This document shows positions 42,901 through 64,000 of a stretch of DNA of 64,000 bases, piece after piece; positions within the stretch are counted from its first letter, which is position 1, and each line of letters starts with the position of its first letter. The stretch lies in contig CAZSYD010000002.1 of assembly GCA_964611355.1 (NCBI GenBank), positions 10,409-74,408 of the forward strand, read 5' to 3'. The notes beneath the pieces were generated by a model, which was given only the letters and a program-made list of their open reading frames with translations, made no database searches and was not told where the DNA came from. Source of the DNA: an uncultured Ignavibacteriales bacterium. Its GTDB lineage: Bacteria > Zixibacteria > MSB-5A5 > GN15 > JAAZOE01. A program made the translations under genes and the position numbers.

Positions 42901-43059
42901 AACCGTCCAGATATCGCCCCGATAAGTAAAGGCGATAGTTTTGCCGTCAGGCGAGAGAGCCGGGTAGCGGGCGTACAGGATATTGTCGGATAAAGCCGCA
43001 TTCGTAATAAATGCCGAAAAAAGAATTATTATTCCGATGAGATAAACGTTTTTTCCCAA
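39913..43059 (-). CDS. Second tricorn-like S41 protease, exported
   Basis: ARYPALSPDG propeller repeats; YIHIPAM, DVRDNGGG, YSASNSE, GEPTAG; likely start TTG 43059 after GGAG, giving a clean signal peptide. Confidence 0.9.
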   Translation of the reverse strand: MGKNVYLIGIIILFSAFITNAALSDNILYARYPALSPDGKTIAFTYRGDIWTVPSEGGEALRLTVHEAEDIRPQFSPDGRMILFSSYRYNNYDIYVIPSGGGTSRQLTFHSGRDIGTGWFPQSDSILFTSSREGWRDIFKVSIDGGTPIRLTGYPYEQEYNGKISTDGRCLLFNNGSGLSRWWRRDLKASRNTDIFLQDRSQETFTSRRLTDFSGHDVWPILNEERREIYFVSCRGEWAQVWKIPIDGGETIQLTDFTGDGAQWLNSNPQGTMLVFEQGFHIWIMDPADGRPRRVDIQIQTDERKNLSEKKTFKGKVEWYSLSPDEKKIAAVIHGEIFVIPAKEPKEGIRVTFTSAREQTPVWGSDSKTLYYSSDRNGNYDIYSVDVTAREESRLTDSPENEVKPLVSPDGNYLVFYRGLDKIIRLDLGANKEVEWTGGMFFDLGVEPTIEYDWSPDSRWLAFTMAGPTYETDIYAVSLDGKSQNLSRFAEWNYRPRFSEDGKTVYFTSTFNDNYNTWKIDLIHKPPEFFEASFDSLFIEEPEEKEQSPKKDDKAEKEKPPITKIDFDRIEERLGKAYELSASSVYPALTPDGAKYLFISSVLEKSEIWSVNIKDEPELKQITKSGVDKKYLTITKDSKEVLYLEEGKIKRTEIETGNTTALSFTASLEIDVPKLNRQKFNESWQMLNTYFYDSAFHGADWAGARDKYEPVLDHVRTEPEFRNLIKEMIGELRASHLNIYPRPEEPNQNVQTGETGIMFDYRTLERDGRFLIADIVGKSTADLAGIKPGQYITAVNDKQLSPNDNIFKILAGTADKRLILAISDKPDKKGREFTLKPVTSITGEVYKDRVEKKRHLVDSLSGGRMAYIHIPAMSTKRLEAFKEELISIAEPKEALIIDVRDNGGGYIAVHLLGILVRTPYFLRNFRDSPVTSENKMRSKALEKPMALLINNYSASNSEIFAEGFRKLKLGKIIGEPTAGAVIGTSSYALIDGTRIRRPSWGAFTLEMEDTDIKPRYPDIFVENLPDDFINGRDPQLVRAVEELMKELK

Positions 43060-43293
43060 GGTATACACTCCGAGGTTAAAGATCGATTCTTGTCGGTATA
43101 TATTATGTCTCAGGAAGTTTCTGTCAACCCCGGTATTAGCCAAAACGCAGTAGAACCGGAGTTTCCGCGAGGTAAATAGCATGTCTTTCGTATTGAGATT
43201 CACGAAAGCAGTCCCTGCAAATTGCCTTCTTGCCGATCAAGAGGGGAATAGTTTGCTGTTGCTCTCCGATTTTGGCTGACGTATATTTTTGAT

Positions 43294-45039
43294 GTGAGCG
43301 AAAAGAATATCGGCAGCTACAGGATTCTGAAAAAAATCGGCTCCGGCGGCATGGCGACCGTTTATCTGGCCGTCCACCGGGATGTTCCCAATCTGAGAGT
43401 GGTGGTGAAACTTCTCAGCGATCCGGGAATGGTGGAAAGGTTCCGGCAGGAAGCGGACAAATTAGCCCTGCTTGACGGCCACACCAATATCTGCCAGATA
43501 AAGCATTTTTTTAATCATGGCGACGATTTCGCCATTGCCATGGAATATATCGACGGCGTTACCCTTGATGATTTAATCAAAAAGCAGGGGAAGCTGTCGA
43601 TAAACGAGTCGATCCGGATAATCATCGAGGTGTTAGACACGCTCCAGTTTGCCCACGAACGCGGCATTTGTCATCGTGATATCAAGCCAAGCAACTTGAT
43701 GATCGACAAGCAGAGCCGGGTTAAGATTATCGACTTCGGGATAGCCAAGGCCGAAGGTGATCCAAACCTGACGGTGGCTGGCAGTTCCTGCGGCACGCCG
43801 ACCTATATGCCCCCGGAACAGTTTAACCCGACGGAGACAACCGATTATACCTTGGCCGATATCTATGCAGTCGGGACAACTCTTTATTACCTGACGACTG
43901 GAGAACTCCCGTTCAAAGGTGATAATGCCTTTGCCCTCAGGGACGCCAAGCTTTTCTCCGATCCGGTAAGGCCGCGCCGACTCAACAAGGAAATTTCCAA
44001 AGAGCTGGAAGATATAATCCTGAAGGCGCTGGAAAAAAACCCGCAGGACAGGTTTACCACTGCCGAGCAAATGCGCGGAGCGCTCGAAAACCTTCGTAGG
44101 GCGGATAAGCCGGTCGCAGCCGGTTCCGTTGATACTGCCGATACCGATGTTCTAAAACCGGCTCGGAAGAAACGTCCCATTTTCAGGCGTATTCCGATAA
44201 TTGCCGCTCTGGTTGTCGCAGGGGTTGCGGTTGTCTATATGGTTTTTCTCAGGGGCGGGCCGGGAAGGCCGACCCCGCCAAAATTATATGCGCCCCAGGC
44301 CGGGGTAACTGTGGAGACCTGGACGCCAAACCTGCGATGGGAAACAAGCGCGGGCGAGGGAGGCGTTTACGAACTGCATTATGCCTCCGACCCGGAATTC
44401 TCAAATCCCAGGACGATTGCCGGTCTTACCATTGGGGAATTCACCTGGACTAATCCGTTGCCGGAAGGGAAGTATTTCTGGCGAGTGAAGGCCATCAATG
44501 CGGACGGTAAAAAAAGCGATTTCTCGGAAATCTACTCTTTTTTGATTAGCATTGCCGAATCGGCAATTCCCCGGGGAGATATGGAATTGACGGTTTCTCC
44601 TTCAGGAGATATTTATATCGACGATGAACTTCGCGGCCGAGATAAAAATAACCTCCGGCTGACTCTTGATACCGGTACATATATTATCCGCGTGGAAAAT
44701 CGAGGAAGCGTGCAGAAGGCGATAGTCGATACGATATATCTGGCGGAAAATGCAAGAATCAGTCGCAATTTCAGATTCAGCTTTCCTTCGCAAAAACCGG
44801 ATAAGCCAGCACAGGTTTTTGGGCGGCTCGGTGTCGGTTCCAGGCCGGTCAACGGTGCCGTGATTTATATTGACGGTCAGCGTCAGGAGCATCGCACCCC
44901 GTATTCATTCAAGCTGAAGTCCGGGCAATACATCGTAGCGGCGACTCTTGAGCTTGGCGGAAACATGCTGACCATGACTGATACCGTTAATGTTTCCGGC
45001 GGCAGCGATGAAAAACTTGTTTTTAATTTCCAAAAGTAG
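43294..45039 (+). CDS. Membrane Ser/Thr kinase with extracytoplasmic FN3-like and PEGA-like domains
   Basis: GSGGMATV, HRDIKPSN, DFG, GTPTYMPPE; TM IPIIAALVVAGVAVVYMVFL; GKYFWRVKA; AVIYIDG...TPY PEGA-like motif. Confidence 0.88.
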   Translation: MSEKNIGSYRILKKIGSGGMATVYLAVHRDVPNLRVVVKLLSDPGMVERFRQEADKLALLDGHTNICQIKHFFNHGDDFAIAMEYIDGVTLDDLIKKQGKLSINESIRIIIEVLDTLQFAHERGICHRDIKPSNLMIDKQSRVKIIDFGIAKAEGDPNLTVAGSSCGTPTYMPPEQFNPTETTDYTLADIYAVGTTLYYLTTGELPFKGDNAFALRDAKLFSDPVRPRRLNKEISKELEDIILKALEKNPQDRFTTAEQMRGALENLRRADKPVAAGSVDTADTDVLKPARKKRPIFRRIPIIAALVVAGVAVVYMVFLRGGPGRPTPPKLYAPQAGVTVETWTPNLRWETSAGEGGVYELHYASDPEFSNPRTIAGLTIGEFTWTNPLPEGKYFWRVKAINADGKKSDFSEIYSFLISIAESAIPRGDMELTVSPSGDIYIDDELRGRDKNNLRLTLDTGTYIIRVENRGSVQKAIVDTIYLAENARISRNFRFSFPSQKPDKPAQVFGRLGVGSRPVNGAVIYIDGQRQEHRTPYSFKLKSGQYIVAATLELGGNMLTMTDTVNVSGGSDEKLVFNFQK

Positions 45040-45108
45040 TTGTATTTTTCATTATATATATGCCCGCTTTGCGGGAAAGATAACATTTTAATCGCGAAAG
45101 GAGTTGCC

Positions 45109-46161
45109 ATGAATACACACAGACTTTTCCAATTTGTAATCGCAGCCGTCGGCGCCGTTTGTCTGATGTCTATCCTGTTTGTCGCCCCGGTCTGCGCTCA
45201 GGGCGAGTCCCCGGTGGCAGAAAAGCTGGGTCAGGCGCTCAAGTTTTACGGCGATCTGGAGTTCGACAAGGGTCTGGAGACGGCCGGACAGCTTCTGAAT
45301 CAGGAAAATCTTAACATTCGTGACAGCATGGCGATTTATTCGGTCATGAGTATGCTGGTTTACGGCAAGGGAGAAGAGTATATAGTTAAATCTTATACAT
45401 ACCTTGAAAAGATGGCTGCGCTCGGTCCGTGCACTATTCAACTTCCATACGATTTCTGGCCGCAACAATTGCGCGACCAGTGGTATAAAATCGTTCAGGC
45501 CAAAGGATCGCTGGTCTGTCCCGAAGAAGGCGATCAGAAAATCAAGACAATCGCCATAATGGAATTCGATAACTATTCGGTCGGCAAATACCAGGAGGAA
45601 CTTGGCTTTATTACCAGGGGCCTGGCCGACTTCTTTGAATCCGATTTTTCCAAACTCAGCTCTCTCAAGGTGGTGGAACGGGACAAGGTGGATTACGTCC
45701 TGAAAGAAATCGAGTTGAGCAAATCAGGTATGGTGGAGAAATCAACCGCCATCCGGGTCGGTAAGCTGCTGGGCGCTCAGATCATGGTATTCGGGAACGT
45801 TACTCAGCTCGACGACCGGCACGCCAAAATGCTGGTCAAAGCCGTCAAAGTGGAAACGTCGGAGATAGTCGCGTCCGTCGAAAAAGAAGGCAAGCCGGAT
45901 TACTTCAAGATGGAAAAAGAACTGGTCAAAGAGCTGGCCGAAAAACTTGACCTTACGCTCGACAAAGAAACCGTCAGCCTCATCGACGAAAGCGGAACCG
46001 AATCGCTTGATGCCGCCACGCTTTATTCCAGGGGCCTCTGCCACATGGATAAGTACGACTACAAGAAAGCCTACGAATTCTTCAAGATGGCCTACGAAAA
46101 GGATGACACTTTCGCCGAAGCGAAAAGGAAAATGGATATTTATCGTCCGCTGGCATCGTAA
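45109..46161 (+). CDS. Exported TPR plus CsgG/FlgO-like domain protein
   Basis: AAGGAG RBS before ATG 45109; signal peptide; IAIMEFDN...LKVVERDKVDYVLKE...VGKLLGAQIMVFG. Confidence 0.72.
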   Translation: MNTHRLFQFVIAAVGAVCLMSILFVAPVCAQGESPVAEKLGQALKFYGDLEFDKGLETAGQLLNQENLNIRDSMAIYSVMSMLVYGKGEEYIVKSYTYLEKMAALGPCTIQLPYDFWPQQLRDQWYKIVQAKGSLVCPEEGDQKIKTIAIMEFDNYSVGKYQEELGFITRGLADFFESDFSKLSSLKVVERDKVDYVLKEIELSKSGMVEKSTAIRVGKLLGAQIMVFGNVTQLDDRHAKMLVKAVKVETSEIVASVEKEGKPDYFKMEKELVKELAEKLDLTLDKETVSLIDESGTESLDAATLYSRGLCHMDKYDYKKAYEFFKMAYEKDDTFAEAKRKMDIYRPLAS

Positions 46162-46197
46162 TGACCGGCGTACGATTTGGTTATGTAAGAGGAAGTA

Positions 46198-47511
46198 ATG
46201 CTTAGAAAATTAATCCTGATCGTTGCGGTTTTGACTGCAGGTTGCTCACAAAGCCTCTATATGCAGGGCAGGAAGCTTTCCGATGAGGGCAGGTACGACA
46301 GGGCGATAGAAGTCTTTTATGATGCAATCAAGGCCAATCCCCAAAGCGGCGGCGCCTGGCGGGAACTGGGCGTGGCCTTTTATAAAAAGGGCGATCTGGA
46401 AAAGGCCGAAGAAGCACTCAAGCAGGCCGCAGGCATTAAGCCCGACGCGCGGACCAACCTTTATATCGGGCTGACTTACGAAAAGCAGAATGAGTATCGA
46501 CCGGCAATAGACGCCTACCGAGCCGCCCTGAGTCTTAAACCGCGCGGGAAAACCAACAATCTGATTCGAGCCCACCTGGATGGGTTGATCTCGAAAAAGA
46601 TCAAGCAGGAGGTCGATCTGGCCCTGAGCAATGAAGGGGAAATAGACGTTGATGCTATTCCCGAAAACACGGTGGCCGTGGTCGATTTTGATGATACCCA
46701 TCTGTCGCCGGAGCTGGCGCCGATAAGCAGGGGGCTTGCGGAATTTACATCCTATGATCTATCGAAGGTAAATTCGCTGCGTGTTATCGAAAGGCTGAAA
46801 ATAAGCGAAATACTGAGCGAACTTCAATTAAGCTCTTCGCAGTTTGCCGATCGGTCGGTTGCTCCACGTGTGGGGAGGCTTTTGGGCAGCAGGAAAATCA
46901 TCACCGGTACGGTTCTGGGTATCGGCGGCGATGCCATCCGGCTCGACGGTGCGGTGGTGAACACCAAAGACAGTTCGGCGGAACTGACCGACCCTGTCGA
47001 AGGCGCTTTGCAGGGAATATTCAAGGTACAGAAGGATTTTGTATTTGGGGTTATCGACAGCCTGGGTATCACTCTTACCGCGCAGGAACGGAACGCCATT
47101 GAGGAAATCCCGACCGAATCGTACCTGGCTTTTCTGGCTTACTGCCGCGGTCTGGACTACAAGGGCCGGGGAATGCTAAAGGAAGCGCATCGCGAATTCA
47201 ATAATGCCGCCGGGATTGACGGTAATTTTCATGAAGCCAATGTTCAAGCCAAAGAGATTTCGCACATGTCGGGGGCCGAATTTGAACGCAGCGCTTCTCC
47301 CGAACAGTTCGAAACGACGGTTTTGGACGAGTCCGATCAGGAAATGTGGTCGGACGGCCTTGACCGAATACATACAGCCGCATTGAACAGCTCCGGTTTC
47401 ATGTATAATATGGACCTGTACAATTGGCGAAGCAGTCTGACCGACGCGCCGCCGCAATTGGACAGCGACCGGGGAAGGGTCATAATCAGAGGTAATCTTG
47501 ATGTTGATTAA
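46198..47511 (+). CDS. Lipoprotein with TPRs and CsgG/FlgO-like domain
   Basis: Lipobox LTAGC; TPRs; VAVVDFDD...LRVIERLKISEILSE...VGRLLGSRKIITG. Confidence 0.75.
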   Translation: MLRKLILIVAVLTAGCSQSLYMQGRKLSDEGRYDRAIEVFYDAIKANPQSGGAWRELGVAFYKKGDLEKAEEALKQAAGIKPDARTNLYIGLTYEKQNEYRPAIDAYRAALSLKPRGKTNNLIRAHLDGLISKKIKQEVDLALSNEGEIDVDAIPENTVAVVDFDDTHLSPELAPISRGLAEFTSYDLSKVNSLRVIERLKISEILSELQLSSSQFADRSVAPRVGRLLGSRKIITGTVLGIGGDAIRLDGAVVNTKDSSAELTDPVEGALQGIFKVQKDFVFGVIDSLGITLTAQERNAIEEIPTESYLAFLAYCRGLDYKGRGMLKEAHREFNNAAGIDGNFHEANVQAKEISHMSGAEFERSASPEQFETTVLDESDQEMWSDGLDRIHTAALNSSGFMYNMDLYNWRSSLTDAPPQLDSDRGRVIIRGNLDVD

Positions 47512-48619
47512 TGGATTTATCAAAGTCGCAGGGATGGCTGGAGTTGTGGTCGCAGTTTCCTGTGTGGCCGCCTTTGGTCAGATAATCTATGGTCAGCCGC
47601 CGTCGGGCAACGCAGGATTTGTTTACAGCCACTGGAGCATCAGCGACACTATTGAGGTCAATCAAATAATGGTCCCGATCAACGGCTTTATTCCTCTGCA
47701 GGACAACCTTGAACTGCGTTTTTCCGCCGCCAGCGCCTCGAATAAACTGGAATACGGCGGGGAAGACCTAGAGCTTTCAGGATTGGGTGACCTGCGTCTC
47801 CAAATGAATCAGTCTCTGGCCGATGACAGGTTTCTTTTAAGCCTCGGACTTAATTTGCCGACCGGCAAGAAAAAGCTGAGCTTTAATGAAGAATGGGTGG
47901 TGTTGAAGGTGCTCTCTTTGGACTACCTCGACTTTCCCGTGCGGCGTCTCGGCGAAGGTTTTGGTCTTAACATCATGGCCGGCGGAGCGGAAATGCTGGG
48001 GTCGATGCGTGTCGGCGGGGCGCTTATGTACCAATATAACGGTACCTATGAGCCTTATGAAACCGGTGATGAGTATAACCCCGGCAATCAGTTCAGCGTT
48101 ATTTCCGGCGTCGATCAGACGGGCGACGGGTATATGCTTACCGCCAATGCCGTCTATTCGGTTTACACTACCGATAAATTGGAAGACAGGAAAATATTTT
48201 GCCAGAGTCCCATGTTTAGTCTTCTCCTGGGTGGTATTTTCGATAACAAAACTTATCAGATCGGCGCCGATATCGGATTGCTGCTTCGGGGGCGTAATGC
48301 TCGCTATGACAGCACGCAAGCCAAAATAGAACAACTAAAAGCTTACGGAAATGAGTTTTTAATTGCCGGTCGGTTCTCATGGATACCGAATAAAAACTGG
48401 CGTATGACGCCTTCGGTGGAGTTAAGAATCATTGGTGAGAATGAGTATAAGCTTGAAGGCGCCAACGTCTTTGGCCTTGGAGGCGAAATCGTCAGGAATA
48501 TCGGCGAGGGCGTTGATATTGGTGTCGCCCTCAAGTACTTCACCGGCAGCTCCGACGGCGGCGATATCGACCTCAGCGGTTATCAACTGTCGGCCAGTCT
48601 TATGACTGCCTTTAAGTGA
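47498..48619 (+). CDS. Putative outer-membrane beta-barrel protein
   Basis: Signal peptide, alternating amphipathic beta-strands, LNLPTGK motif, terminal ...LMTAFK. Confidence 0.6.
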   Translation: MMLINGFIKVAGMAGVVVAVSCVAAFGQIIYGQPPSGNAGFVYSHWSISDTIEVNQIMVPINGFIPLQDNLELRFSAASASNKLEYGGEDLELSGLGDLRLQMNQSLADDRFLLSLGLNLPTGKKKLSFNEEWVVLKVLSLDYLDFPVRRLGEGFGLNIMAGGAEMLGSMRVGGALMYQYNGTYEPYETGDEYNPGNQFSVISGVDQTGDGYMLTANAVYSVYTTDKLEDRKIFCQSPMFSLLLGGIFDNKTYQIGADIGLLLRGRNARYDSTQAKIEQLKAYGNEFLIAGRFSWIPNKNWRMTPSVELRIIGENEYKLEGANVFGLGGEIVRNIGEGVDIGVALKYFTGSSDGGDIDLSGYQLSASLMTAFK

Positions 48620-48630
48620 GAGTGAATACT

Positions 48631-49506
48631 ATGCGAAATAAAACCCTGAATAAAACGTTAGCAATTGTATTTGGCGTCTTTGTTGCGGTCTGTTTGGCTG
48701 CCGGTTGTTCGGAGAAGATCGTCAGCATACAGGAAAAGGGCGTCGAAGTATCAATGTGCGCCAAATTGTCAACGCCTGCAATGGCGCAGTATATAGACCA
48801 TTTTCAGGTTATGGTCATGGCGCGGGATTTTATCCCGCCGATTATCGAGCCGCTTGAGTTCATTGACGGTTACCTGAGAGGCGAGGTTATTGTTCCCGCC
48901 GGCAGAGAAAGGATTTTTGTTGTCCAGGCTTTTGATAAAGAAGACAATATGCTCTATTCCGGAATAACCGTTGCCGACGTACTACCGGGTAAAACAGTGG
49001 AATTGTCGATCGACCTTTATCCGATCGCGCCCATGCTGTATATCACGCCGCATTATCAAAGAGTTGAAATGGATAGCTCTTTTACCGTCGGCATAATGAT
49101 AAACATGGTTCCAGAGCTCAGCAGCATTTCGTTCTATGTTTCCAGCAATGATGCACCGATCTATATTCAGTCAGTCACGGAGGGAACGGATATCGATACC
49201 GCCAATAGCCGGTTATCGGAGGAGCATGACGATTTATCGGCCTATGTAGATATTAGCTGGTATAATCAGCCGATTGGGAGTCTGACGGACGTGGCAGGCA
49301 ATGCTCATCTGGCAACCATTGATTTCGGATCTTATTATGATTGGGCTTACGATACCGCTACCGCTGTCCTGGATTTGCAAATCCATTCCATGATAAGCAC
49401 TGACGGCGATACTATCTACATTTCCGGCGGTATTATTTCAACCCAATCTGTATTTACAGATAGAGGTGTGATAGAATTGTTCTATGAGCCTGGCGGTGCC
49501 AAGTGA
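48631..49506 (+). CDS. Lipoprotein with Ig/cohesin-like domains
   Basis: Lipobox LAAGC; beta-rich; SSFTVGIMI...LATIDF cohesin-like segment. Confidence 0.55.
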   Translation: MRNKTLNKTLAIVFGVFVAVCLAAGCSEKIVSIQEKGVEVSMCAKLSTPAMAQYIDHFQVMVMARDFIPPIIEPLEFIDGYLRGEVIVPAGRERIFVVQAFDKEDNMLYSGITVADVLPGKTVELSIDLYPIAPMLYITPHYQRVEMDSSFTVGIMINMVPELSSISFYVSSNDAPIYIQSVTEGTDIDTANSRLSEEHDDLSAYVDISWYNQPIGSLTDVAGNAHLATIDFGSYYDWAYDTATAVLDLQIHSMISTDGDTIYISGGIISTQSVFTDRGVIELFYEPGGAK

Positions 49507-49540
49507 AATGCGCTGATAATAAATAGTGTCATTCGCTTCA

Positions 49541-49575
49541 AAAAAAAGGTGACCCGGCCCCAGTCACCTTTTTTT
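49541..49575. terminator. Bidirectional intrinsic terminator at the 3' end of the T6SS locus
   Basis: AAAAAAAGGTGAC-CCGGCCCCA-GTCACCTTTTTTT. Confidence 0.92.
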
Positions 49576-49597
49576 AAATGCTTTATAAGATAGTCCC

Positions 49598-50128
49598 TTA
49601 TTCGCCTTCAAGAATAAGCGTCTCGGCCACCGTTGCGGTATAGATTTCGTTTGTTGCGATTTCCCCCTGGCCGCCTTTTATAAACAACCCGAAGATGAAA
49701 AGATAAGAAAGAGTCTTTTTGCTTTTGCCTTTGTTTTCCACGTCGCCGGTGAGCTTTATCTTTGATTCGTCAGGGGGCTGGTAACTGCCCTTTGTTTCCA
49801 ACTCAACGAATTCAACCTTGATATATCCCGGCTTGCCCGCCTTTTTGGCCTTTTCGGCTTCCGCAACTCGGGCGGTTCCCTGCGCTCCTTCTTCGACAAT
49901 CGTTTTGCTGCCGATCATGATCGGTTCGGCCAGCGTGATAAGCAGCGGAATATCTTTGGCCAGTTCGCCGGAAGATATTTTCATCCCGGGGGCGAATTTG
50001 ACTTTGACTTTTGTCCCTCGAGGAAGCTGAATGGTTGCGGCCTGGAGGGAAACGGCGCATACAAGAGATATCAAAACGAAGTATATTGCAATCCGAGTAA
50101 GATATTTTTCCGATATTTTAAGACTCAT
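49598..50128 (-). CDS. Exported VirB10/TrbI-like beta-domain protein, last gene of the T6SS operon
   Basis: Signal peptide (SLQA-A); LPRGTKVKV...ISSGE...ITLAEPIMIGSKTIVEEGAQGTARV...KKAGKPGYIKVEFVEL pattern; hydrophobic segment LSYLFIFGLFI; GGAG RBS. Confidence 0.5.
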   Translation of the reverse strand: MSLKISEKYLTRIAIYFVLISLVCAVSLQAATIQLPRGTKVKVKFAPGMKISSGELAKDIPLLITLAEPIMIGSKTIVEEGAQGTARVAEAEKAKKAGKPGYIKVEFVELETKGSYQPPDESKIKLTGDVENKGKSKKTLSYLFIFGLFIKGGQGEIATNEIYTATVAETLILEGE

Positions 50129-50163
50129 GGTTTGCTCCTTGTCTTTTTTATAAATCTCTGTCC

Positions 50164-52368
50164 CTATTCTTTCAACTTCGGAAGCTGATCCACAAGCGGA
50201 GGGATAAACCTGATGTTGACCTTTTTGCCGATATTATCGAATGATACGGTTCCATCCATATCAAAAAGAGAATACTTGCCCCGCAGAATTGTCTTGTCGC
50301 TCGATTCCCGGCCCCAAGTTTCCGCCTGCATGAGGGTATCAATGGCAATATGGATAATATCGCTGACTTTCCACTTAAGTTTATATTCGAAGCCGGCCAG
50401 TATCTGCGACTCTTCCTGCCAGCCGGGGTCTTTTCCTTTTTCGGCTACTTCAATGTGAAGATGGCCGTCGCTGGGGATACTTTCCACCTTGTAATTGAAC
50501 GTTTTCTTCTTGTCCCACTTTTTGGCCTGCGAAAGGTACTTGTCGATCATCTGAATGCTTTTCTTGTCGACGCCCGGATCGAGGCTTTTTCTGATTTTTT
50601 TCAGTTCCGCGACGGCATCGCCCAGACGGTAAGACGGGGAATCATTGCCGTTTATTTGATCGATCAGGTCGTCAAGCTCCACGGCGGCCTTTTTGGCCAC
50701 TTCCTTTTTAACCTTTTTGATTTTCCTTTCCGAGAGAGCGTCCCCCAGAAGAATTTCTTCCCTGGACAATGTCTGGCTGTAAAGGCTCTTGTCGGTGCGA
50801 ACCTGTTCCTGAATGGTTTTCCAGATGGTCGTATCGGAAGGGCTGGCGACCGCCCTGGTAAACATATCCCAGTAGGCCAGGGCGCGCCCGCTGCGCGTGA
50901 ATAAAATCGAGGTTTCGTCCCCCTTATGGTAATTATCAAGTGTGGCCACAAGCCTTTCGTGTTCGCTGGTGAGGATCACGGTGCTGTCACTCGGATTCAA
51001 CCTGGGCCAGAGAGTAATGTCTTTGACGATTGTCGCAAACCGGGCGATATGTTCGTTAAGGTATTTGATCGCTTCCCTCTCGTTATATCCCATATACCCT
51101 TCGCGAATTCGCTGGGCGGGTCCCTGAAAAGGCTCAAAAAACCATTTAACCGTGTAGGCGCGCTCATAGTTGCGATAAGCCCTGATAATCCTGCCGCGTT
51201 CCTTGTCGGAGGCGCTGTACATATTGCCGCCGTAAGCGGTAAGTATTTCGTTTTCGATTCTCTGCGGTTTGGGATAGAGGAGCTTGAAGTGGTATAAGTT
51301 GGGAAGTGAAAAAAGCACAATCCAAATCAGGCTGATAAGCGCGGCGTATTTGGCCACGGTTCTGAAGCGCGATATTCTTTTATTGCGACCGATGGCGTTG
51401 AGCAGCCAGTAAAACGGTTCCTTGACGCCGACCGGCTGTATTTTATCCGGCGGGACGTAGAGGGAACGGCCGACGTCGGTTCCTATTTTTTCCGGAGTTA
51501 CGCCGGTGGCGGAAACGAAGAAAATCTGCAGATCGAGCGTCCGGCCAAGAATCACCCGCAGGAAGTCCTTAAGCTTTACCAGAACATTTCTGACCGAGCC
51601 GGCCCAGGCGGAATCGGAAGCGATCAGATTACTTTCCAGAACCTTTTCGAGGAAGAATTCAAAATCTTCGGAGACGAGATATTCGTCTTCCGGTTTGATC
51701 AGGACAACGTCTTTGTCATCGGAAAAGCCGGGCAGAATATCGGCCTTGGTTATCACCAGTCCTATCGGAATCGGCAGGCGGGAATCAAGCGGGGCCAGCC
51801 GTTCGACCATGTTGACAAAAGAGGCCACGTGCGATTGGCTTTCCAGTTCGGCGCCCATGATCTTGGGATCGTAGAAGAAGAGCAGTCCGTCGCAGCCCGA
51901 CATAAAGTCGTCCACCTGGTCGGCCTGCTCGCTCTGTTCCGAGATCGAAACGGTTTTGCCGTTATAGTCATAAGAAACAACGGAGAACTTTCTTCTGCGA
52001 TCAACGATGGCATTGAAAAGAAGAAGTTTTCCGGTTACGGTCGGGTTGGGAAACTTCTTTTCCCCTCGAAGATCGACAACCGTCCCGGCATCAACGGCGG
52101 TTCCCAGTCCCCAAATGGCGCGGTAGTTCGACAGGAATTCGCCGGCGGTGGTATTGTCGATGACCGATATCTGGAGATTTTTGGAAATTTTGCATTCTTC
52201 GTTTAAGACGGTAAAATAAACCGTCTTGCCGGAGTTGGCATCGCCATATATACCGATGCGGATGCCTGACGGCCAGATGGTTTCAGGTGCAGCGCCTTTT
52301 TTCCCTTTTCGTTTGGCGGCTGCCTTGGAGCCTTTTTTGAATATCTTTATCAGCTTGCTTATTTTCAT
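50164..52368 (-). CDS. TRAFAC-like P-loop GTPase domain, single TM and large periplasmic domain (TssM-like topology)
   Basis: G1 GDANSGKT, G3 DYNG, G4 TKAD, G5 VSAT; TM YAALISLIWIVLFSL at about aa 340; about 370-aa C-terminal domain. Confidence 0.7.
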   Translation of the reverse strand: MKISKLIKIFKKGSKAAAKRKGKKGAAPETIWPSGIRIGIYGDANSGKTVYFTVLNEECKISKNLQISVIDNTTAGEFLSNYRAIWGLGTAVDAGTVVDLRGEKKFPNPTVTGKLLLFNAIVDRRRKFSVVSYDYNGKTVSISEQSEQADQVDDFMSGCDGLLFFYDPKIMGAELESQSHVASFVNMVERLAPLDSRLPIPIGLVITKADILPGFSDDKDVVLIKPEDEYLVSEDFEFFLEKVLESNLIASDSAWAGSVRNVLVKLKDFLRVILGRTLDLQIFFVSATGVTPEKIGTDVGRSLYVPPDKIQPVGVKEPFYWLLNAIGRNKRISRFRTVAKYAALISLIWIVLFSLPNLYHFKLLYPKPQRIENEILTAYGGNMYSASDKERGRIIRAYRNYERAYTVKWFFEPFQGPAQRIREGYMGYNEREAIKYLNEHIARFATIVKDITLWPRLNPSDSTVILTSEHERLVATLDNYHKGDETSILFTRSGRALAYWDMFTRAVASPSDTTIWKTIQEQVRTDKSLYSQTLSREEILLGDALSERKIKKVKKEVAKKAAVELDDLIDQINGNDSPSYRLGDAVAELKKIRKSLDPGVDKKSIQMIDKYLSQAKKWDKKKTFNYKVESIPSDGHLHIEVAEKGKDPGWQEESQILAGFEYKLKWKVSDIIHIAIDTLMQAETWGRESSDKTILRGKYSLFDMDGTVSFDNIGKKVNIRFIPPLVDQLPKLKE

Positions 52369-52382
52369 GATAATGCCGTCAT

Positions 52383-53306
52383 TTATCTGCCTGCGCCGCC
52401 TTGGACGGTTGTGGCCTTCTGCCTGAACTCATCCAGCTTATTATTCGAATAATCCGCCCATTTCAAGGGAACATATACGGCCAGAAAGATAAAAATCAAA
52501 ATTATCGCGCCGTAGAATATATAGGCTCCCGCACGCTGGGTCATAACCAGCCGGAAATAGCGGAAACTCTTGAAGGTTCCCTTAATCCGGCTCCATACGT
52601 CAACCAGCGAACTTTTGAGTTTTGCCCAGAAGCTGGTCTTGCGCAGGTAGTTCCACTGAGTCAGGTATTGGCGATGAAGCCTGTTTTTGACGCTAAGTTT
52701 ACGGAAGGCGTCCACACGGAGAAGGTGAAATTCAAGACTGCTCCTGTCGTCGGCAAGGTCTGTGCCAAGAATCATTCTGCGTCGAAGTAGTTCCAGAAAC
52801 TTGTACGGATCGCTTTTGGCGGCGAAATCCTCCGGAGTAATATCGTCCCGGATGCTTCTGCCGAATTTATTGTAATAGCGGGCGATTTCCTGTAATAGAA
52901 AAGCATTGAGCTGAAAGTTGTTGTTTAGGCTTCCTCCCTTGAAAAGCATCGGCAACAGATGAGTTTCAAAAAAGGGAATATCCTGTTTTACCGGCCGTAA
53001 GTCACGGCAATGGAGATAAGCCTTGTTGGATTGCCCGTCGATATCGGCTTCCGATTCAAAAAAGGTAATCAGTATCTGGATAACTACCTGACGGAAGTCC
53101 GACGAGGTTAACGGAGTTTTCTTGATCTTGTCCAGAAAAACCCGATCAACGTTTACAGCTTCATCACGCTGTCGCGACAGGGCTTTAAACATGGTATAAA
53201 GACCGCCATAAGTCTGCAGAAATGCCTCGGTATCAAACTCGGTGTATCTCGTTTCAAAAGTACCGAAATACCTGAAAAGGTCCTCTATATATGATCTTAT
53301 ATCCAT
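52383..53306 (-). CDS. Hypothetical helical protein with C-terminal TM anchor (TssL-like topology)
   Basis: About 255-aa soluble region, TM YIFYGAIILIFIFLAVYVPL and short tail; lies immediately after tssK. Confidence 0.6.
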   Translation of the reverse strand: MDIRSYIEDLFRYFGTFETRYTEFDTEAFLQTYGGLYTMFKALSRQRDEAVNVDRVFLDKIKKTPLTSSDFRQVVIQILITFFESEADIDGQSNKAYLHCRDLRPVKQDIPFFETHLLPMLFKGGSLNNNFQLNAFLLQEIARYYNKFGRSIRDDITPEDFAAKSDPYKFLELLRRRMILGTDLADDRSSLEFHLLRVDAFRKLSVKNRLHRQYLTQWNYLRKTSFWAKLKSSLVDVWSRIKGTFKSFRYFRLVMTQRAGAYIFYGAIILIFIFLAVYVPLKWADYSNNKLDEFRQKATTVQGGAGR

Positions 53307-53329: not shown

Positions 53330-54778
53330 TTAGATACTATAAATTATCAAATCCATCTTGCCCAGATTGGCGAATTTTTCGGGATCGTGAGCGCCCCGGA
53401 AAATAAGCGTTATCTGGTTTACCGACGAGCATTCCAGCATATCCCTCGGGTGCAGAGCCACCTTGTTTCCGAAGGCCGTGGTGTCGACGTCGATGGGATC
53501 GGTTTCGCCAAGTCCGCGGGCTTCGTTTAATCCCAGACGCACCTGCATGTTCCGCCATTCGGCGTCGTCAAAAAGATTCTTGGACATCAGGGTTACAAGG
53601 TCTGATATCGGTCGCGGCTTGGATATTTTAATCATGAGATAACAGAGTTCACCCACCCGTTCCAACCGGCTGGCGGCATAAGTCAGGTGGCGATAAGTGC
53701 GGCCGGCGTAGGTCATCGTCTCGGTGGCCACGGCCTGCTCGCCGAGTTCTTCCCGTTTGGTGCGGGCCAGGAAAGTCATGATGCCTTGCAACTTTTCGAG
53801 AATGTCATCGATCATGCGGACTTGTCCGCCCAAATCCTGATGGTTGTACTCGGACAGAACGAAGCCGTCAACTTCAGAGAGAAATTGACCTATATCGGCG
53901 CCAAGTTCTTTGGTAAAGAACTTTTCGTTCAAATAGTCTTTCAGGCCGGGATGGAGGTTAAACAGGGATGAGACCACTCTAAATAGTCTCTTGAAGTAGA
54001 TCACCAGCCTGACGGGGTGCCCGGCATTCGATCCGACTACGAATTCATCGAGAGTGGAGGCCAGATGATAAACCAGGAGATGAACAGTTTCCCTGAACGC
54101 CACCTGCAGGCTGGTGCCGGCTCCGGCCAGGCCGCCTGAAACTGAAATCGCCATAAAGGCGCGTGTCGAAAGCGACAGCGTATTTTCCAGCCGATTCCTG
54201 AATTCGAATGCCTTTTCCGAGAGCCTTTCATCCGCATTAATCGACAGGCATGGCGGAAAGTACCCGGGGGAGATGCTTACCTCGCTGCCGCTGATGGTTA
54301 GCTCGGCTATCTGAATATAGCCCCCCTCCGGCATATTCGGCCGCTTGCCGAGATGCACCGAATAGCTGTTCGTAAGATACGGCGTCCGGGGCAGGTCTTC
54401 GCTCGGATCCGGATCGCCCACCTGTTTTTTGGCGGCCGGATCAACGGCAATGAAAACCGGCACAGTTGTCTCGCTGACTTCCATCTCGCCTCGGATGATA
54501 TCACTGCCTGATCCGTTTATCTCGATATAGCTGCCGTCGGGAGTAAGCGCCTGGCACCTGACCACCTCGACCCGCAGACGGCTGCTGGTAACTGACAGGT
54601 TCATACTTAGAGCCGGTTTGCCGGAGAGCGATTTTCTAACCAGCCCATAACGGTCACCGGCCGTAAAGGTATGCCAGCGTGCCAGAGATTCGAAGTACTT
54701 TTCCTGGTCTTGGAGATGCTGCCTGGTGATCAGCATCCCATCCTGCCAGTTTATGGAATATAACTGCAAGTCACTCAT
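53330..54778 (-). CDS. tssK: T6SS baseplate subunit TssK-like
   Basis: N-terminal INWQDGMLITRQHLQDQE motif typical of TssK; YFPPCL; operon context. Confidence 0.75.
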   Translation of the reverse strand: MSDLQLYSINWQDGMLITRQHLQDQEKYFESLARWHTFTAGDRYGLVRKSLSGKPALSMNLSVTSSRLRVEVVRCQALTPDGSYIEINGSGSDIIRGEMEVSETTVPVFIAVDPAAKKQVGDPDPSEDLPRTPYLTNSYSVHLGKRPNMPEGGYIQIAELTISGSEVSISPGYFPPCLSINADERLSEKAFEFRNRLENTLSLSTRAFMAISVSGGLAGAGTSLQVAFRETVHLLVYHLASTLDEFVVGSNAGHPVRLVIYFKRLFRVVSSLFNLHPGLKDYLNEKFFTKELGADIGQFLSEVDGFVLSEYNHQDLGGQVRMIDDILEKLQGIMTFLARTKREELGEQAVATETMTYAGRTYRHLTYAASRLERVGELCYLMIKISKPRPISDLVTLMSKNLFDDAEWRNMQVRLGLNEARGLGETDPIDVDTTAFGNKVALHPRDMLECSSVNQITLIFRGAHDPEKFANLGKMDLIIYSI

Positions 54779-54802
54779 TGTCTTGCCTCAAAAAGTATAA
54801 AG

Positions 54803-54831
54803 AAGTTATATACGTTCATCTTTAATGTCAA
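54803..54831 (-). promoter_or_regulatory. Internal sigma70-type promoter upstream of tssK
   Basis: Minus strand TTGACA-N17-TAACTT in an AT-rich 105-nt gap. Confidence 0.55.
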
Positions 54832-54883
54832 GATCAATAAAATCTTTGTTTTCAGGTTGTTTGCTATCTTTGCTCCATCGTCT

Positions 54884-55786
54884 CTAAACGCGGGTCGAAT
54901 AGCCGAGTCGGGCTCGATCCCCCAGATGCATTGTCCCTGCGTCGGTTTCGAATGTAATCCGGTAGTCCAGGTTACTCGGCATGCAGATATTCAGTACCCA
55001 CTCCACTTTTTTGCGTTTCTTCCCTCCCGGCAGGAATTCGGCGATTTCGCCGGGGGCAATGCCACTTACGATAATGCGGTACGCCGAATCATATTCAATA
55101 AAAGTTTTGCCCAGGACTGTTTCTTTACCAAGCCGGCCGGTTTTCGAACCCAGTCTATATCTTATCTCCTCCGGGATTTCAAAGTCAGACCTGATATTTT
55201 CGATTATCCTGAAGCGATACCCGAACATCCTGCTCATAATCTCAGCCGCTTTATCGGGATTCCCGGCCCACCGGTGAAAGTCAGGCAGGATGGTTGCCCA
55301 GAGAAGCGCCGCCTTGTGGTCGGAGGCGTTTTCGATTCCAAAATCGAACAGGTCGAGGAAACGTGATAACTGTTCCTTATCCGGAACGGAGAAGTTGAAT
55401 TTGAGCGTTTGGCGTCGGGCAAACGCCTCGTATTTGATTTCAGGGTTATCGAAAGGAGCCATTAGTCGGCGGGCTCGATCTTCCCACGCCGACCCCACCG
55501 ATCGGCGGCCTTCAAGCCCGTAGAAGAACTGGTACGGCAGTTTGTCCGTGGCTCCGGAACAGCCGATTTCAAGGACGATGCGGGTGTTTCGTGAAAGCGG
55601 AGTTCCCGGCGGCGGTTCCTGTTTCAGGATTTCGCCTTTGTAGTTTTCGAATTTACCGACAGGCAGCAGATCTACCTGATTGAGATCAACCCCTGTCTTA
55701 ATCAAAAGATTCAATCCGGTGGCGAAGTGGAGTTGATTCCGTCGATTGCAGAGGTCGGGCATCCGTAACTGGCCGTCGGAAATCAT
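54884..55786 (-). CDS. tssG: T6SS baseplate subunit TssG (subtype iii-like)
   Basis: GATDKLPYQFFY resembles the GxYDxLPExLFH motif; LGKETVLG; C-terminal LGYSTRV; overlaps the tssF stop (ATGA). Confidence 0.72.
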   Translation of the reverse strand: MISDGQLRMPDLCNRRNQLHFATGLNLLIKTGVDLNQVDLLPVGKFENYKGEILKQEPPPGTPLSRNTRIVLEIGCSGATDKLPYQFFYGLEGRRSVGSAWEDRARRLMAPFDNPEIKYEAFARRQTLKFNFSVPDKEQLSRFLDLFDFGIENASDHKAALLWATILPDFHRWAGNPDKAAEIMSRMFGYRFRIIENIRSDFEIPEEIRYRLGSKTGRLGKETVLGKTFIEYDSAYRIIVSGIAPGEIAEFLPGGKKRKKVEWVLNICMPSNLDYRITFETDAGTMHLGDRARLGYSTRV

Positions 55787-57447
55787 TGGTTGACAATCTC
55801 CACTTTATAGTGCGTGTTGACCTGGGAGCGGGACTTAAGAAAACTGCCCAGCCTTGCTTGCAAAAGCTTTATCTCATCGTCTGAGTAGAAATCATTATTC
55901 TTTATGGTCGTCCGGACGATAATGCAACGCCTGACGCCCCCGGAAAAACGTTCGACGCCGTTTTTACATTCGGCTTGCTTTATTCGAGGGTCGAAGGTTA
56001 ACGCCCAGCGGGATATCTCGGTGAAACTCAATGCCCGGTCGCGATTGCGGAGCCGTGCGGAAACTTCGGTCATGATCTGTTCGTCGGTTTTGGCCGGAAT
56101 GGCGCCAGCGGTTGGGATGATACTGACGGCTGATGATATCCCGGGATGGCTTTCGTACAATTCATTTATTTTGCCCGCTTCGATTCCATTGCCGTCGGTA
56201 CCTGCGGTAATAGAATAATTGATCGTTAATGAATCGGGCGGCAGTTCCAGATGCGAAGAGAAGTCAAACCAGAGAACCAGCTTGTTGTCTCTTTCCTCGA
56301 ACGAATAATATCGACCGGAAAGGTCCTGAACGGCCAGGTGAGTGGGGATATAATCACGGCCGCTTGAATCAACCACGCTGGTGACCTCCAGAACCCCGTT
56401 GATATCCTCCGGCAGCTCCACGTCTACCAACTGATTACCGCCGGTATGCTTAAAGAGAGTGAGATCGTTTTTATTGACCGCGACGAAGCAGTTGAAATAA
56501 ATCCCAAAGGGTGATTGAAGCCTCGATTTATCGCCGCCGGTAGGAAGATCCAGACGAATCCAGTAGAAGTGGCCGGTGTCCGAGGGAAATTCGATTCCAT
56601 TGGCGGCCAGTTGATCGGCCAGCTTTTCCTCGATCGGTCCCATTTCACAGGTGGATGCAAACTCCCTGGGAATGACCACGAAATTATCATTCAACGGGCG
56701 AAACAGGTCGGCTCCGGATCGCAGGCCGCCCCATTCGAGGACATTTCCGTCAACGGAAAAGATATCATCAAGAGAGGTGGTCAGACCCGGGCAGAAACCG
56801 CTGTCTTCGTAAAAACTCCCATAATGGGAACCGGGATACCACCTTGCCCAGCGCAGTTGCCTTAAGACGTCCGGAATTCCCGTTATGAAAAGCGTTGCGT
56901 CGATAAAATCAGTCGCCGAACCGGTATGATCGACGGCTATATATACCTGATACGAACTGCCGGCAGCGAAGGTTGCCCGTTGTTGTGAAGTCGAGTGAAG
57001 TTCCTCCTCCGGAACCGGTGACAGATCTATAATCTTATCGTCGGTTTTCAGGAAGATATGTTTGACCTGCGCCGCTATGAGTTTTTCCTTTTTAAGGGCG
57101 GAGAAAAAGAAAGTCTGACCGCCTTCGCGGGACTCTTTGTAAAAGAACTTGGTGTGCGGATCGACCTCCACCACCGGATCGACCGGTTCGCAGCGCATAA
57201 CGGTAAAGGCGGGCACCGGCCAGCGCATGCTTTCCGGGCATAACGAGCGAATCAGGGAAGCGGTGACAATTTCCCAGACATTGTCGATGCGCCGGTCAAT
57301 TCTTTCCAACTGATGAGCGTAAAGCTGCATCAGGATTCTGAGGATCGGATCGAGCCGGTCGGGCGAAGCCGGGACTTCCGGATTCCAAGCGCGCAACTCC
57401 CGGTGCATATCGGCAAAGATTTTTTCTCTTGATCGGGATTTTTCCAC
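55783..57447 (-). CDS. tssF: T6SS baseplate subunit TssF (subtype iii-like)
   Basis: LDPILRILMQLYAHQL...LCPESMRWPVPAFTV; NCFVAVN; LRNRDRALS. Confidence 0.8.
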   Translation of the reverse strand: MEKSRSREKIFADMHRELRAWNPEVPASPDRLDPILRILMQLYAHQLERIDRRIDNVWEIVTASLIRSLCPESMRWPVPAFTVMRCEPVDPVVEVDPHTKFFYKESREGGQTFFFSALKKEKLIAAQVKHIFLKTDDKIIDLSPVPEEELHSTSQQRATFAAGSSYQVYIAVDHTGSATDFIDATLFITGIPDVLRQLRWARWYPGSHYGSFYEDSGFCPGLTTSLDDIFSVDGNVLEWGGLRSGADLFRPLNDNFVVIPREFASTCEMGPIEEKLADQLAANGIEFPSDTGHFYWIRLDLPTGGDKSRLQSPFGIYFNCFVAVNKNDLTLFKHTGGNQLVDVELPEDINGVLEVTSVVDSSGRDYIPTHLAVQDLSGRYYSFEERDNKLVLWFDFSSHLELPPDSLTINYSITAGTDGNGIEAGKINELYESHPGISSAVSIIPTAGAIPAKTDEQIMTEVSARLRNRDRALSFTEISRWALTFDPRIKQAECKNGVERFSGGVRRCIIVRTTIKNNDFYSDDEIKLLQARLGSFLKSRSQVNTHYKVEIVNQ

Positions 57448-57478
57448 AATGGTCTATCCTGTCCGGTTCCTCAGATTA

Positions 57479-57859
57479 TCAACCCAGATGATAGGTAGCC
57501 TCAAATAATTCTTCCCTGTCTCCATCGTGGTAATTTCCGGATACCTTGATGGCTATGCCCAGGGCATGGGAGGAGACGCCGTCCAGACTTAGAAAAGATA
57601 CGGATACGTTGTAGATCCTCTTTTCATATTTGTTGATGGCGTTTCTCAGGGTGGATCTGACATCGGCCTTGTTGACCGTGTAAAGGTCAGAAAACTCCTT
57701 TTCCCAGATGGCGCATCCGTACTCGGGCTCAAACGGCATAATGCCCGGGCGGGAACTCAATATCAGACCGACCGAATATGTCAGCGATTCGTGCAGATTG
57801 GCCTTGTCGAGGTAACCATCCTTCAGTACTAACGGTAGCGCCAGATAATCCATAGGCAA
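57479..57859 (-). CDS. tssE: T6SS baseplate wedge TssE (gp25 family)
   Basis: YLALPL...ILSSRPG...FEPEYGCAIWE...AINKYEKRI gp25 signature. Confidence 0.85.
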   Translation of the reverse strand: MPMDYLALPLVLKDGYLDKANLHESLTYSVGLILSSRPGIMPFEPEYGCAIWEKEFSDLYTVNKADVRSTLRNAINKYEKRIYNVSVSFLSLDGVSSHALGIAIKVSGNYHDGDREELFEATYHLG

Positions 57860-57861
57860 GG

Positions 57862-59634: not shown

Positions 59635-59651
59635 AAAGATGCATTAAACAA

Positions 59652-59680
59652 TCTGCCGGGCAGTTGCCCTGCCCGGCAGA
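59652..59680 (-). terminator. Strong stem-loop between tssD and vgrG (leaky terminator or mRNA stabiliser)
   Basis: TCTGCCGGGCAG-TTGCC-CTGCCCGGCAGA perfect 12-bp stem; only a weak U tract on the minus strand. Confidence 0.65.
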
Positions 59681-59694
59681 AATCAAACGCCTCT

Positions 59695-60099
59695 CTATTC
59701 CTCCCAGCGGTTGTCTATTTCGGCGTCAGCGATCATCAGTCGGTGGCAGGAAATCTCGAAGTATTCACAAACCTGGTCGTCTGCTTTCTCTTTAACGTGC
59801 GGGATGGTCTCCGTATACTTCGTGACAAAACCTTCCTCCCACTTGAGCTCTTTCATAGTGGCGTCGTCCGGGTTTTTAAACATAACCGAGCCGGATTTGA
59901 AGTTGGTTTTGCTGGAATCCATAGCCCAGCGAGCGATATCGACGTTTTCGTCGGATTCTCTCGTGATTTTAATCAAACCGGCGTGAGCCCGATCTGTGGG
60001 ACGACCGGTTTCGTCGTTGGCGGTGTACAACTCATAAGAAACAGCATAAACATTTTTGTAGGCTACGCCATCGACTTCAAGAATTGGTCTCCTGGCCAT
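59695..60099 (-). CDS. tssD: T6SS tube protein TssD/Hcp, Bacteroidota (subtype iii) family
   Basis: DETGRPT...GLIKIT...WAMDS...SGSVMFKN...KELKWEEGFVTKYTE pattern of PF17642-type TssD; AAGGAG RBS. Confidence 0.88.
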   Translation of the reverse strand: MARRPILEVDGVAYKNVYAVSYELYTANDETGRPTDRAHAGLIKITRESDENVDIARWAMDSSKTNFKSGSVMFKNPDDATMKELKWEEGFVTKYTETIPHVKEKADDQVCEYFEISCHRLMIADAEIDNRWEE

Positions 60100-60139
60100 G
60101 ATTGGCTCTCCTTAAGTAAAATGGTTTATATGGACTGAT

Positions 60140-61570: not shown

Positions 61571-61586
61571 TTATATCACCTCTTTT

Positions 61587-62033: not shown

Positions 62034-62055
62034 CTATATCCTCCGGTTATTGAGA

Positions 62056-63998: not shown

Positions 63999-64000
63999 CT

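Follow-up and report, generated by a model that had tools for sequence, protein, structure and literature searches.

The stretch of DNA analysed here, referred to as the window, comprises 64,000 nucleotides of contig CAZSYD010000002.1 (assembly GCA_964611355.1) from an uncultured salt-marsh Zixibacterium known from metagenome-assembled genomes (MAGs) only, and it carries a type VI secretion system (T6SS) operon whose final gene is orf176. This gene is an open reading frame (ORF) with an ATG start on the minus strand (49598 to 50128, 176 amino acids) and lies exactly where a preliminary description of the sequence had placed it. Upstream of it and on the same strand are the genes encoding ClpV, TssB, TssC, Hcp, VgrG, TssE, TssF, TssG and TssK, all of them supported by Pfam or NCBIfam matches, followed by two genes designated orf307 and orf734. 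Together with orf176, the latter two probably encode a previously undescribed three-gene T6SS membrane complex that includes a subunit with a VirB10-type fold. The features of the operon, numbered from the first nucleotide of the window, are as follows.

49540 to 49577, no strand assigned: bidirectional intrinsic terminator, separating orf176 from the convergent operon
49598 to 50128, minus strand: orf176, exported 176-residue protein, predicted to consist solely of a VirB10/TrbI C-terminal-domain-type beta-barrel; final gene of the T6SS operon
49673 to 49714 (codons 139 to 152), minus strand: hydrophobic loop TLSYLFIFGLFIKG, Lys-flanked, where VirB10 has its antenna; proposed to serve as a monotopic membrane anchor or in oligomer contacts
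50039 to 50128 (codons 1 to 30), minus strand: Sec signal peptide with basic n-region, hydrophobic core and SLQA/AT site, no lipobox
50135 to 50140, minus strand: Shine-Dalgarno sequence AAGGAG
50164 to 52368, minus strand: orf734, predicted TRAFAC GTPase with a transmembrane (TM) and a periplasmic part; obligate neighbour of orf176
52383 to 53306, minus strand: orf307, cytoplasmic domain of about 260 residues and one C-terminal TM helix (residues 263 to 281); directly after tssK
53330 to 63956, minus strand: T6SS core block, Pfam and NCBIfam matches, comprising the nine entries below
53330 to 54778, minus strand: TssK (Pfam/NCBIfam)
54884 to 55786, minus strand: TssG (Pfam/NCBIfam)
55783 to 57447, minus strand: TssF (Pfam/NCBIfam)
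57479 to 57859, minus strand: TssE (Pfam/NCBIfam)
57862 to 59634, minus strand: VgrG (Pfam/NCBIfam)
59695 to 60099, minus strand: Hcp (PF17642)
60140 to 61570, minus strand: TssC (PF17541)
61587 to 62033, minus strand: TssB (Pfam/NCBIfam)
62056 to 63956 and beyond, minus strand: ClpV, split and extending past the end of the window

Within the window, ClpV (62056 to 64000, minus strand) is read as two ORFs overlapping in an ATGA at 63150 to 63153, the first of which encodes D1 and the lid and leaves the window, and the second D2 and the small domain. Either the gene is truly split or the assembly contains a frameshift.

The Shine-Dalgarno sequence of orf176, read directly from the DNA, stands 6 nt before its ATG and inside the 35-nt gap that separates it from orf734. 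After the stop codon, the series AAAAAAAGGTGAC-TGGGGCCG-GGTCACCTTTTTTTT forms the bidirectional terminator (an A-run, a GGTGAC...GTCACC stem and a T-run), which orf176 has in common with the convergent operon; this element was not listed by a simple consensus terminator scan and was recognised by direct reading. Homologues of orf176 number 142 at E ≤ 1e-3, with a length of about 175 residues, and all of those that carry an organism name come from Zixibacteria MAGs, while the mean column identity across 42 aligned orthologues is 54%. Given this number of homologues and this degree of conservation, orf176 is a real gene and not a chance ORF. DNA of the locus is also present in salt-marsh and other sediment metagenomes.

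The association between orf176 and the T6SS is strict. A search of species-representative genomes with a 12-sequence alignment of orf176 found 46 loci, hosted mostly by Zixibacteria and by a few MAGs labelled Ignavibacteriales, Calditrichota, Krumholzibacteriota or GN15. In every one of the loci having upstream DNA (45/45), orf176 is immediately preceded by an orf734 homologue, and the complete series Hcp-VgrG-TssE-F-G-K-orf307-orf734-orf176 is found in 31 of the 32 loci with 10 kb of upstream sequence. The reverse test, in which metagenome loci were retrieved through orf734, gave the same picture, with orf176 directly downstream of orf734 in all 51 loci with enough downstream DNA (in one case overlapping it by 8 nt) and orf307 directly upstream of orf734 in 55 of 56. 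The context is unchanged around divergent orf176 orthologues (E about 1e-28 to 1e-24). The preliminary description had presented orf176 as the terminal gene of a T6SS and had named a lack of conservation with that system as grounds for refutation; orf176 does close the same-strand operon running from ClpV to orf734, and it co-occurs in synteny with the T6SS core genes. By this co-occurrence orf176 is a candidate core component of the T6SS that may be required for Hcp secretion or sheath assembly. No type IV secretion system (T4SS) families were found among the ORFs of the window or in the related loci inspected, and orf176 as part of a T4SS was ruled out by the lack of T4SS genes in the window.

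The protein encoded by orf176 begins with a Sec signal peptide whose hydrophobic core covers residues 13 to 27, or 13 to 31 at its widest (Kyte-Doolittle 2.29). Among the 42 orthologues, the cleavage site has Ala at -1 in 40 and A, V, L, I or S at -3 in all, and there is no conserved Cys. The signal is thus, as judged from the sequences, of the signal peptidase I type and not of the lipoprotein type, and the peptide is presumably cleaved; a lipoprotein was ruled out by the lack of a lipobox. A terminal T6SS gene whose product is small and exported might also code for an immunity protein, a secreted effector or an adaptor, but effector and immunity genes vary between strains, whereas orf176 is syntenic and well conserved in every locus and has no toxin-like partner adjoining it. 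This alternative is barely credible, and orf176 as an effector or immunity gene was rejected on the grounds of invariant synteny.

An AlphaFold2 model of orf176, built with the 42-sequence alignment, has a mean predicted local distance difference test score (pLDDT) of 86.7 and a predicted template modelling score (pTM) of 0.71. It consists of an N-terminal signal helix (residues 7 to 26) followed by eleven beta-strands and one short helix (residues 138 to 143), with the barrel beginning at residue 31, directly after the signal peptide and with no linker. When this model was compared with 350,542 PDB chains by Foldseek, ranks 1 to 12 were all occupied by VirB10 homologues, either from T4SS outer-membrane core complexes or ComB10. 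They are TrwE, CagY, TraF, ComB10 and F-plasmid inner-ring chains, including 8rt6_A, 6x6s_AY, 8cb2_BBB, the 3jqo chains, 6x6k_AY, 2bhv and 7okn_A, and the homology of TrwE (8rt6), TraF (3jqo), CagY (8cb2_BBB and 6x6s/6x6k AY) and ComB10 (2bhv) to VirB10 was confirmed by phmmer with Agrobacterium VirB10. These twelve matches have probabilities of 0.85 to 1.00 (at least 0.99 in 11 of 12), E-values of 5e-3 to 5e-2 and query-normalised TM-scores (TMq) of 0.35 to 0.48, a normalisation taken over all 176 residues, 30 of them signal peptide, so that on the mature domain the best TMq would be somewhat above 0.5. Other small barrels, such as allene oxide cyclase and dirigent proteins, rank under the VirB10 chains with far lower probability. 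In a search of the viral structures of BFVD, one of the three high-probability matches is a phage protein annotated as VirB10 (probability 0.95). The mature protein, of about 146 residues, is therefore predicted by the model to be nothing beyond a beta-barrel of the VirB10/TrbI C-terminal domain type. A beta-strand pattern resembling this domain had been proposed in the preliminary description, together with a comparison against VirB10/TraF structures, and the all-beta barrel and the twelve top-ranking matches support the resemblance: the predicted fold is VirB10-like and not an unrelated one.

By sequence, orf176 is not a member of the VirB10/TrbI family. Pfam TrbI was not matched by orf176 at E ≤ 0.1, nor by orf176 and its 41 orthologues at E ≤ 10, and neither the single sequence nor profiles had any significant match in Pfam, NCBIfam or the PDB. 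Run against 1.84 billion cluster representatives, a profile returned 32 matches at E < 1e-30, a number that rises to 230 at E < 1e-10 and to 3044 at E < 1e-3, revealing a large uncurated superfamily of signal-peptide proteins of about 170 residues with the same barrel motif and hydrophobic insert, which no Pfam family covers. Tandem duplications occur in some members of this superfamily, as do fusions to PEGA or DUF2846. Among 77 distant members, the most frequent Pfam families, all sub-threshold, are TrbI (7 members, best E 1.9e-4) and Transposon_TraM (3 members); TraM is the Bacteroides counterpart of VirB10. When the superfamily was compared by hhalign with 65 VirB10 C-terminal domains combined in a narrow profile, the first half of the barrel aligned at P = 1.3e-3, residues 29 to 90 of orf176 being paired with a VirB10 stretch beginning 'ITEGTIIPCILQTAI...', and an N-terminal barrel motif 'xPxGTxIxxxL...S' was seen to be common to both. 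Under relaxed settings the two are collinear over 167 columns, with the hydrophobic block placed on the antenna region and the final two strands also aligned, at low confidence past the first 57 columns; with a single VirB10 sequence in place of the profile, hhalign found nothing. The sequence evidence is weaker than the structural evidence and points in the same direction, toward VirB10.

Some members of the superfamily are found in other genomic settings. A paralogue with a score similar to those of the divergent orf176 orthologues adjoins hydrogenase and NAD-synthase genes, a distant stand-alone paralogue adjoins an ABC transporter, and there is no secretion system around either of these two examined members. 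The T6SS-linked clade accordingly represents one specialised branch within a family that is otherwise generic. The preliminary description had suggested that a T4SS part was recruited into the T6SS as its outer-membrane exit; the origin from a T4SS is not established, since the closest sequence relatives (the 3044 matches) are small secreted proteins and not T4SS proteins, and the two examined members lie outside secretion systems. That description thus proved sound in the VirB10-like fold and the T6SS linkage, and unsupported in its T4SS origin and, as described below, its pore function.

When compared with VirB10/TrbI proteins (TraF of pKM101, 3JQO; TrwE of R388, 8RT6; CagY; ComB10, 2BHV; PF03743), orf176 is alike in its predicted barrel fold, its periplasmic location and a hydrophobic insertion before the last two strands. 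It differs, apart from the missing Pfam match, in having a cleavable signal peptide in place of the cytoplasmic tail, inner-membrane TM helix and Pro-rich linker of VirB10, and in being encoded in a T6SS operon without VirB7, VirB9, VirB4 or VirB11 as neighbours. Another difference concerns the insertion. In VirB10 the antenna takes up about 50 residues, which form an amphipathic helix-loop-helix, whereas the loop of orf176, located at the antenna position ahead of the last two strands, has 11 to 13 residues with one 6-residue helix. It is nearly invariant across the family, with the consensus GK(G/S)KK-x-LSYLFIFGLFI-KGG, and SYLFIFGLFIKG is the best-conserved 12-mer of the family (conservation 0.89). 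The hydrophobic segment LSYLFIFGLFI (residues 140 to 150) has a Kyte-Doolittle value of 2.39 over 11 residues, and the model confidence is lower here (pLDDT about 65). A hydrophobic antenna-like segment, as noted in the preliminary description, is therefore real and located where the antenna is expected, but it is far shorter than its VirB10 counterpart. Eleven uniformly hydrophobic, Lys-flanked residues would fit a monotopic single-leaflet anchor or a buried oligomer contact, and not the lining of a channel.

These properties bear on the possibility that orf176 forms a true VirB10-like outer-membrane pore, that is, a ring of about 10 to 16 copies whose loops cross the outer membrane and leave a channel for Hcp and VgrG. 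The fold match is to the one family known to make an outer-membrane channel from an insertion borne by a barrel, the loop occupies the antenna-equivalent position and is the best-conserved part of orf176, and the operon encodes no other outer-membrane component. Nevertheless, 11 to 13 uniformly hydrophobic residues are too short for a bilayer-spanning helix or hairpin, they lack the amphipathic character expected of a channel lining, and the antenna is far longer, as seen in the pTiC58 VirB10 sequence used for comparison. Moreover, the canonical T6SS (TssJLM) is not known to have a permanent outer-membrane pore, which also counts against one here. The outer-membrane pore, or exit, of the preliminary description is accordingly considered unlikely, as the loop fits a monotopic anchor better than a transmembrane pore.

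The two partner proteins have architectures that recall, to different degrees, those of known T6SS membrane subunits. The AlphaFold2 model of orf734 (pLDDT 81.5), together with hydropathy, points to a cytoplasmic GTPase (residues about 30 to 310), one long TM helix (317 to 364), a periplasmic helical domain (366 to 619) and a C-terminal beta-sandwich (622 to 722). Foldseek with the full-length model retrieved GTPases only (BDLP, atlastin, MglA, Ras), the GTPase domain dominating the search. Among its orthologues, sub-threshold matches to DO-GTPase2 were found in 42/42 (best 2.2e-7) and to IcmF-related_N in 22/42 (best 1.9e-3). IcmF-related_N is the NTPase domain of TssM. The domain order of orf734 in the model thus resembles a reduced TssM/IcmF, with a P-loop NTPase, a TM segment, a periplasmic helical part and C-terminal beta domains, although TssM has three TM helices and about 750 periplasmic residues, compared with one TM helix and about 370 residues in orf734, and all of the matches are sub-threshold; orf734 may be a minimal and very divergent TssM. 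As for orf307, it appears to be tail-anchored like TssL/DotU, a likeness in topology only, and the gene order tssK-orf307-orf734 agrees with this comparison.

From these lines of evidence, built on prediction and comparative genomics, orf307, orf734 and orf176 probably form a new T6SS membrane complex in which orf176 is the outer-membrane-proximal, TssJ-like subunit. On balance, and with modest confidence, we favour a reading that places orf176 in the periplasm, at the distal end of an envelope complex of three proteins by which the Zixibacteria T6SS is anchored. According to this model, orf307 would be tail-anchored in the inner membrane and, being encoded beside tssK, would dock the baseplate, while orf734 would bridge the periplasm in the manner of TssM. 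After export and cleavage, orf176 would oligomerise at the tip of orf734, with its loop inserted into the inner leaflet of the outer membrane, where it would do the job of the TssJ acyl chains as tether and cap. The oligomerisation of orf176, its contact with orf734 and its association with the outer rather than the inner membrane are thus suppositions of this model.

It is plausible, by analogy of the gene order (K, a TssL-like gene, a TssM-like gene, then orf176) and with no TssJ found, that orf176 stands in place of TssJ. Both are small exported proteins of a K-L-M block and are proposed as outer-membrane-proximal partners of a periplasm-spanning subunit. TssJ, the outer-membrane lipoprotein of the T6SS-i complex TssJLM, on the other hand, has a lipobox with an acylated Cys and a transthyretin-like fold, while orf176 has no lipobox, a signal peptidase I-type site and a VirB10-type barrel, and no sequence similarity between them is seen with Pfam or NCBIfam. 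TssJ binds the C-terminal periplasmic domain of TssM, and the evidence for a counterpart between orf176 and orf734 is their invariant adjacency. As far as sequences tell, orf176 is a member of neither family, looking like a VirB10 barrel and being proposed for a tether role of the TssJ type.

Several observations weigh against this reading. The structural scores of orf176 are weak (E of at least 5e-3, TM-score below 0.5) and were obtained on a predicted model, zero of the 42 orthologues match Pfam TrbI even at E ≤ 10, and the hhalign probability for the superfamily against VirB10 is just 18%. TssM was not matched by orf734 in the full-length Foldseek search or in a profile search of the PDB, and orf307 has no Pfam or PDB sequence link and no match to TssL. 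Stand-alone paralogues of orf176 occur outside T6SS loci, and therefore the barrel has some generic activity. The adjoining convergent operon, with its CsgG-like and outer-membrane-protein-like products, could be the source of the real outer-membrane component. A look for RNA-seq evidence of expression returned none. Finally, the loop is compatible with the outer and the inner membrane alike.

This last point leads to an arrangement in which the loop sits in the inner membrane, in its periplasmic leaflet, with the barrels as a collar around the TM helices of orf734 and orf307. The Lys flanks of the loop suit phospholipid head groups in either membrane, orf176 has neither a lipid anchor nor an outer-membrane protein signal directing it to the outer membrane, and orf734 and orf307 have one TM helix each, so that an extra ring could stabilise the channel. 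However, orf734 already has a 370-residue periplasmic arm with a terminal beta-sandwich needing a distal partner, and in all solved T4SS the VirB10 barrels lie beneath the outer membrane, which makes an inner-membrane collar quite unlikely. The distal, outer-membrane-proximal placement of orf176 is retained as the preferred one.

Envelope anchoring of the T6SS is known for Proteobacteria, through TssJLM, and since 2024, in outline, for Bacteroidota, through TssNQOPR (PMC10781749). In their survey of complete genomes, Bongiovanni et al. (2024, PMC10781749) encountered the latter system, T6SS-iii, solely in Bacteroidota. The Zixibacteria locus shares with T6SS-iii the tail and baseplate Pfam families, including Hcp PF17642 and TssC PF17541, a lineage-specific membrane complex in place of TssJLM and a tssK-adjacent membrane-complex gene whose product probably docks the baseplate. 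It differs in having three envelope genes and not five, without the 5-TM TssN, the PKD-domain TssP or the vWA lipoprotein TssR. No Pfam or NCBIfam matches to TssJ, TssL, TssM or TssN to TssR families were found within the cluster; in particular, none of TssN, O, P, Q and R is matched by orf176, orf734 or orf307, the architectures of which differ from those described (PMC10781749). In its gene order, tssK-orf307-orf734-orf176, the locus is reminiscent of the tssJKLM block that the same work describes for Proteobacteria (PMC10781749). Among the papers searched there is no report of a Zixibacteria T6SS, and in those on T6SS VirB10 appears only as an analogy for the C-terminal helix of TssM.

The locus thus combines Bacteroidota-type tail and baseplate families with envelope genes that are unrelated and reduced to a minimal three, and it does so in another phylum, one that is uncultured. 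A bolder proposal, which is put forward tentatively, is that Zixibacteria have a third kind of T6SS membrane complex, neither TssJLM nor TssNQOPR, made of a tail-anchored protein, a TssM-like GTPase-TM-periplasmic protein and a gate ring of antenna-less VirB10-type barrels near the outer membrane, the fold of the T4SS outer-membrane core having been co-opted by a contractile injection system. If true, this would extend the known link between type IVb secretion systems and T6SS (IcmF/DotU) to the VirB10/DotG barrel. Confirmation would also bear on the old question of the origin of T6SS membrane complexes, provide a small and tractable membrane complex for structural work and offer a first way into the function of the small secreted VirB10-barrel proteins, of which more than 3000 are uncharacterised.

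On the opposite strand, and convergent with orf176, lies an operon of five proteins, whose features are the following.

43294 to 49506, plus strand: convergent neighbour operon, five proteins (Pfam)
43294 to 45039, plus strand: TM Ser/Thr kinase (Pfam)
45040 to 46161, plus strand: CsgG/LpoB-like lipoprotein (Pfam)
46198 to 47511, plus strand: TPR and CsgG-like lipoprotein (Pfam)
47498 to 48619, plus strand: outer-membrane-protein-like protein with signal peptide, no Pfam match
48616 to 49506, plus strand: variable cohesin- or LRR-type lipoprotein (Pfam)

This kinase operon is found downstream in about two thirds of the related loci with enough DNA and is absent in L019, L020, L032, L033, L045 and L050. 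Its membership in the T6SS is uncertain; it may have a regulatory role, as a PpkA-like module, or may supply the actual partner of the T6SS at the outer membrane. Its frequent conservation beside the locus, the terminal position of orf176 in its own operon and the stand-alone paralogues in unrelated contexts would agree with orf176 being an accessory periplasmic factor, either a chaperone or pilot for orf734 assembly or a sensor or regulator working with the kinase and CsgG-like proteins. Such a role is very unlikely given the coupling with orf734 (51/51 and 45/45), a conservation of orf176 as high as that of core parts (mean column identities of 54% and 62%) and the absence of the kinase operon from several loci that retain orf176. 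The anchoring role in the envelope complex remains the favoured one.

Other genes of the window include two convergent tricorn-type proteases of 1096 residues (PD40 propeller, Tricorn C1, PDZ and S41) at 36487 to 39777 (plus strand) and 39913 to 43203 (minus strand), which adjoin the kinase operon, and a third PD40/peptidase-MA protein at 23122 to 26466 (minus strand). Two pairs of a histidine kinase and a sigma-54 response regulator are encoded at 5591 to 8391 and 31577 to 35309 (both plus strand), and a second Ser/Thr kinase-TPR protein at 12835 to 15909. The two-component pairs and the second kinase are possible regulators, with no evidence of linkage to the T6SS.

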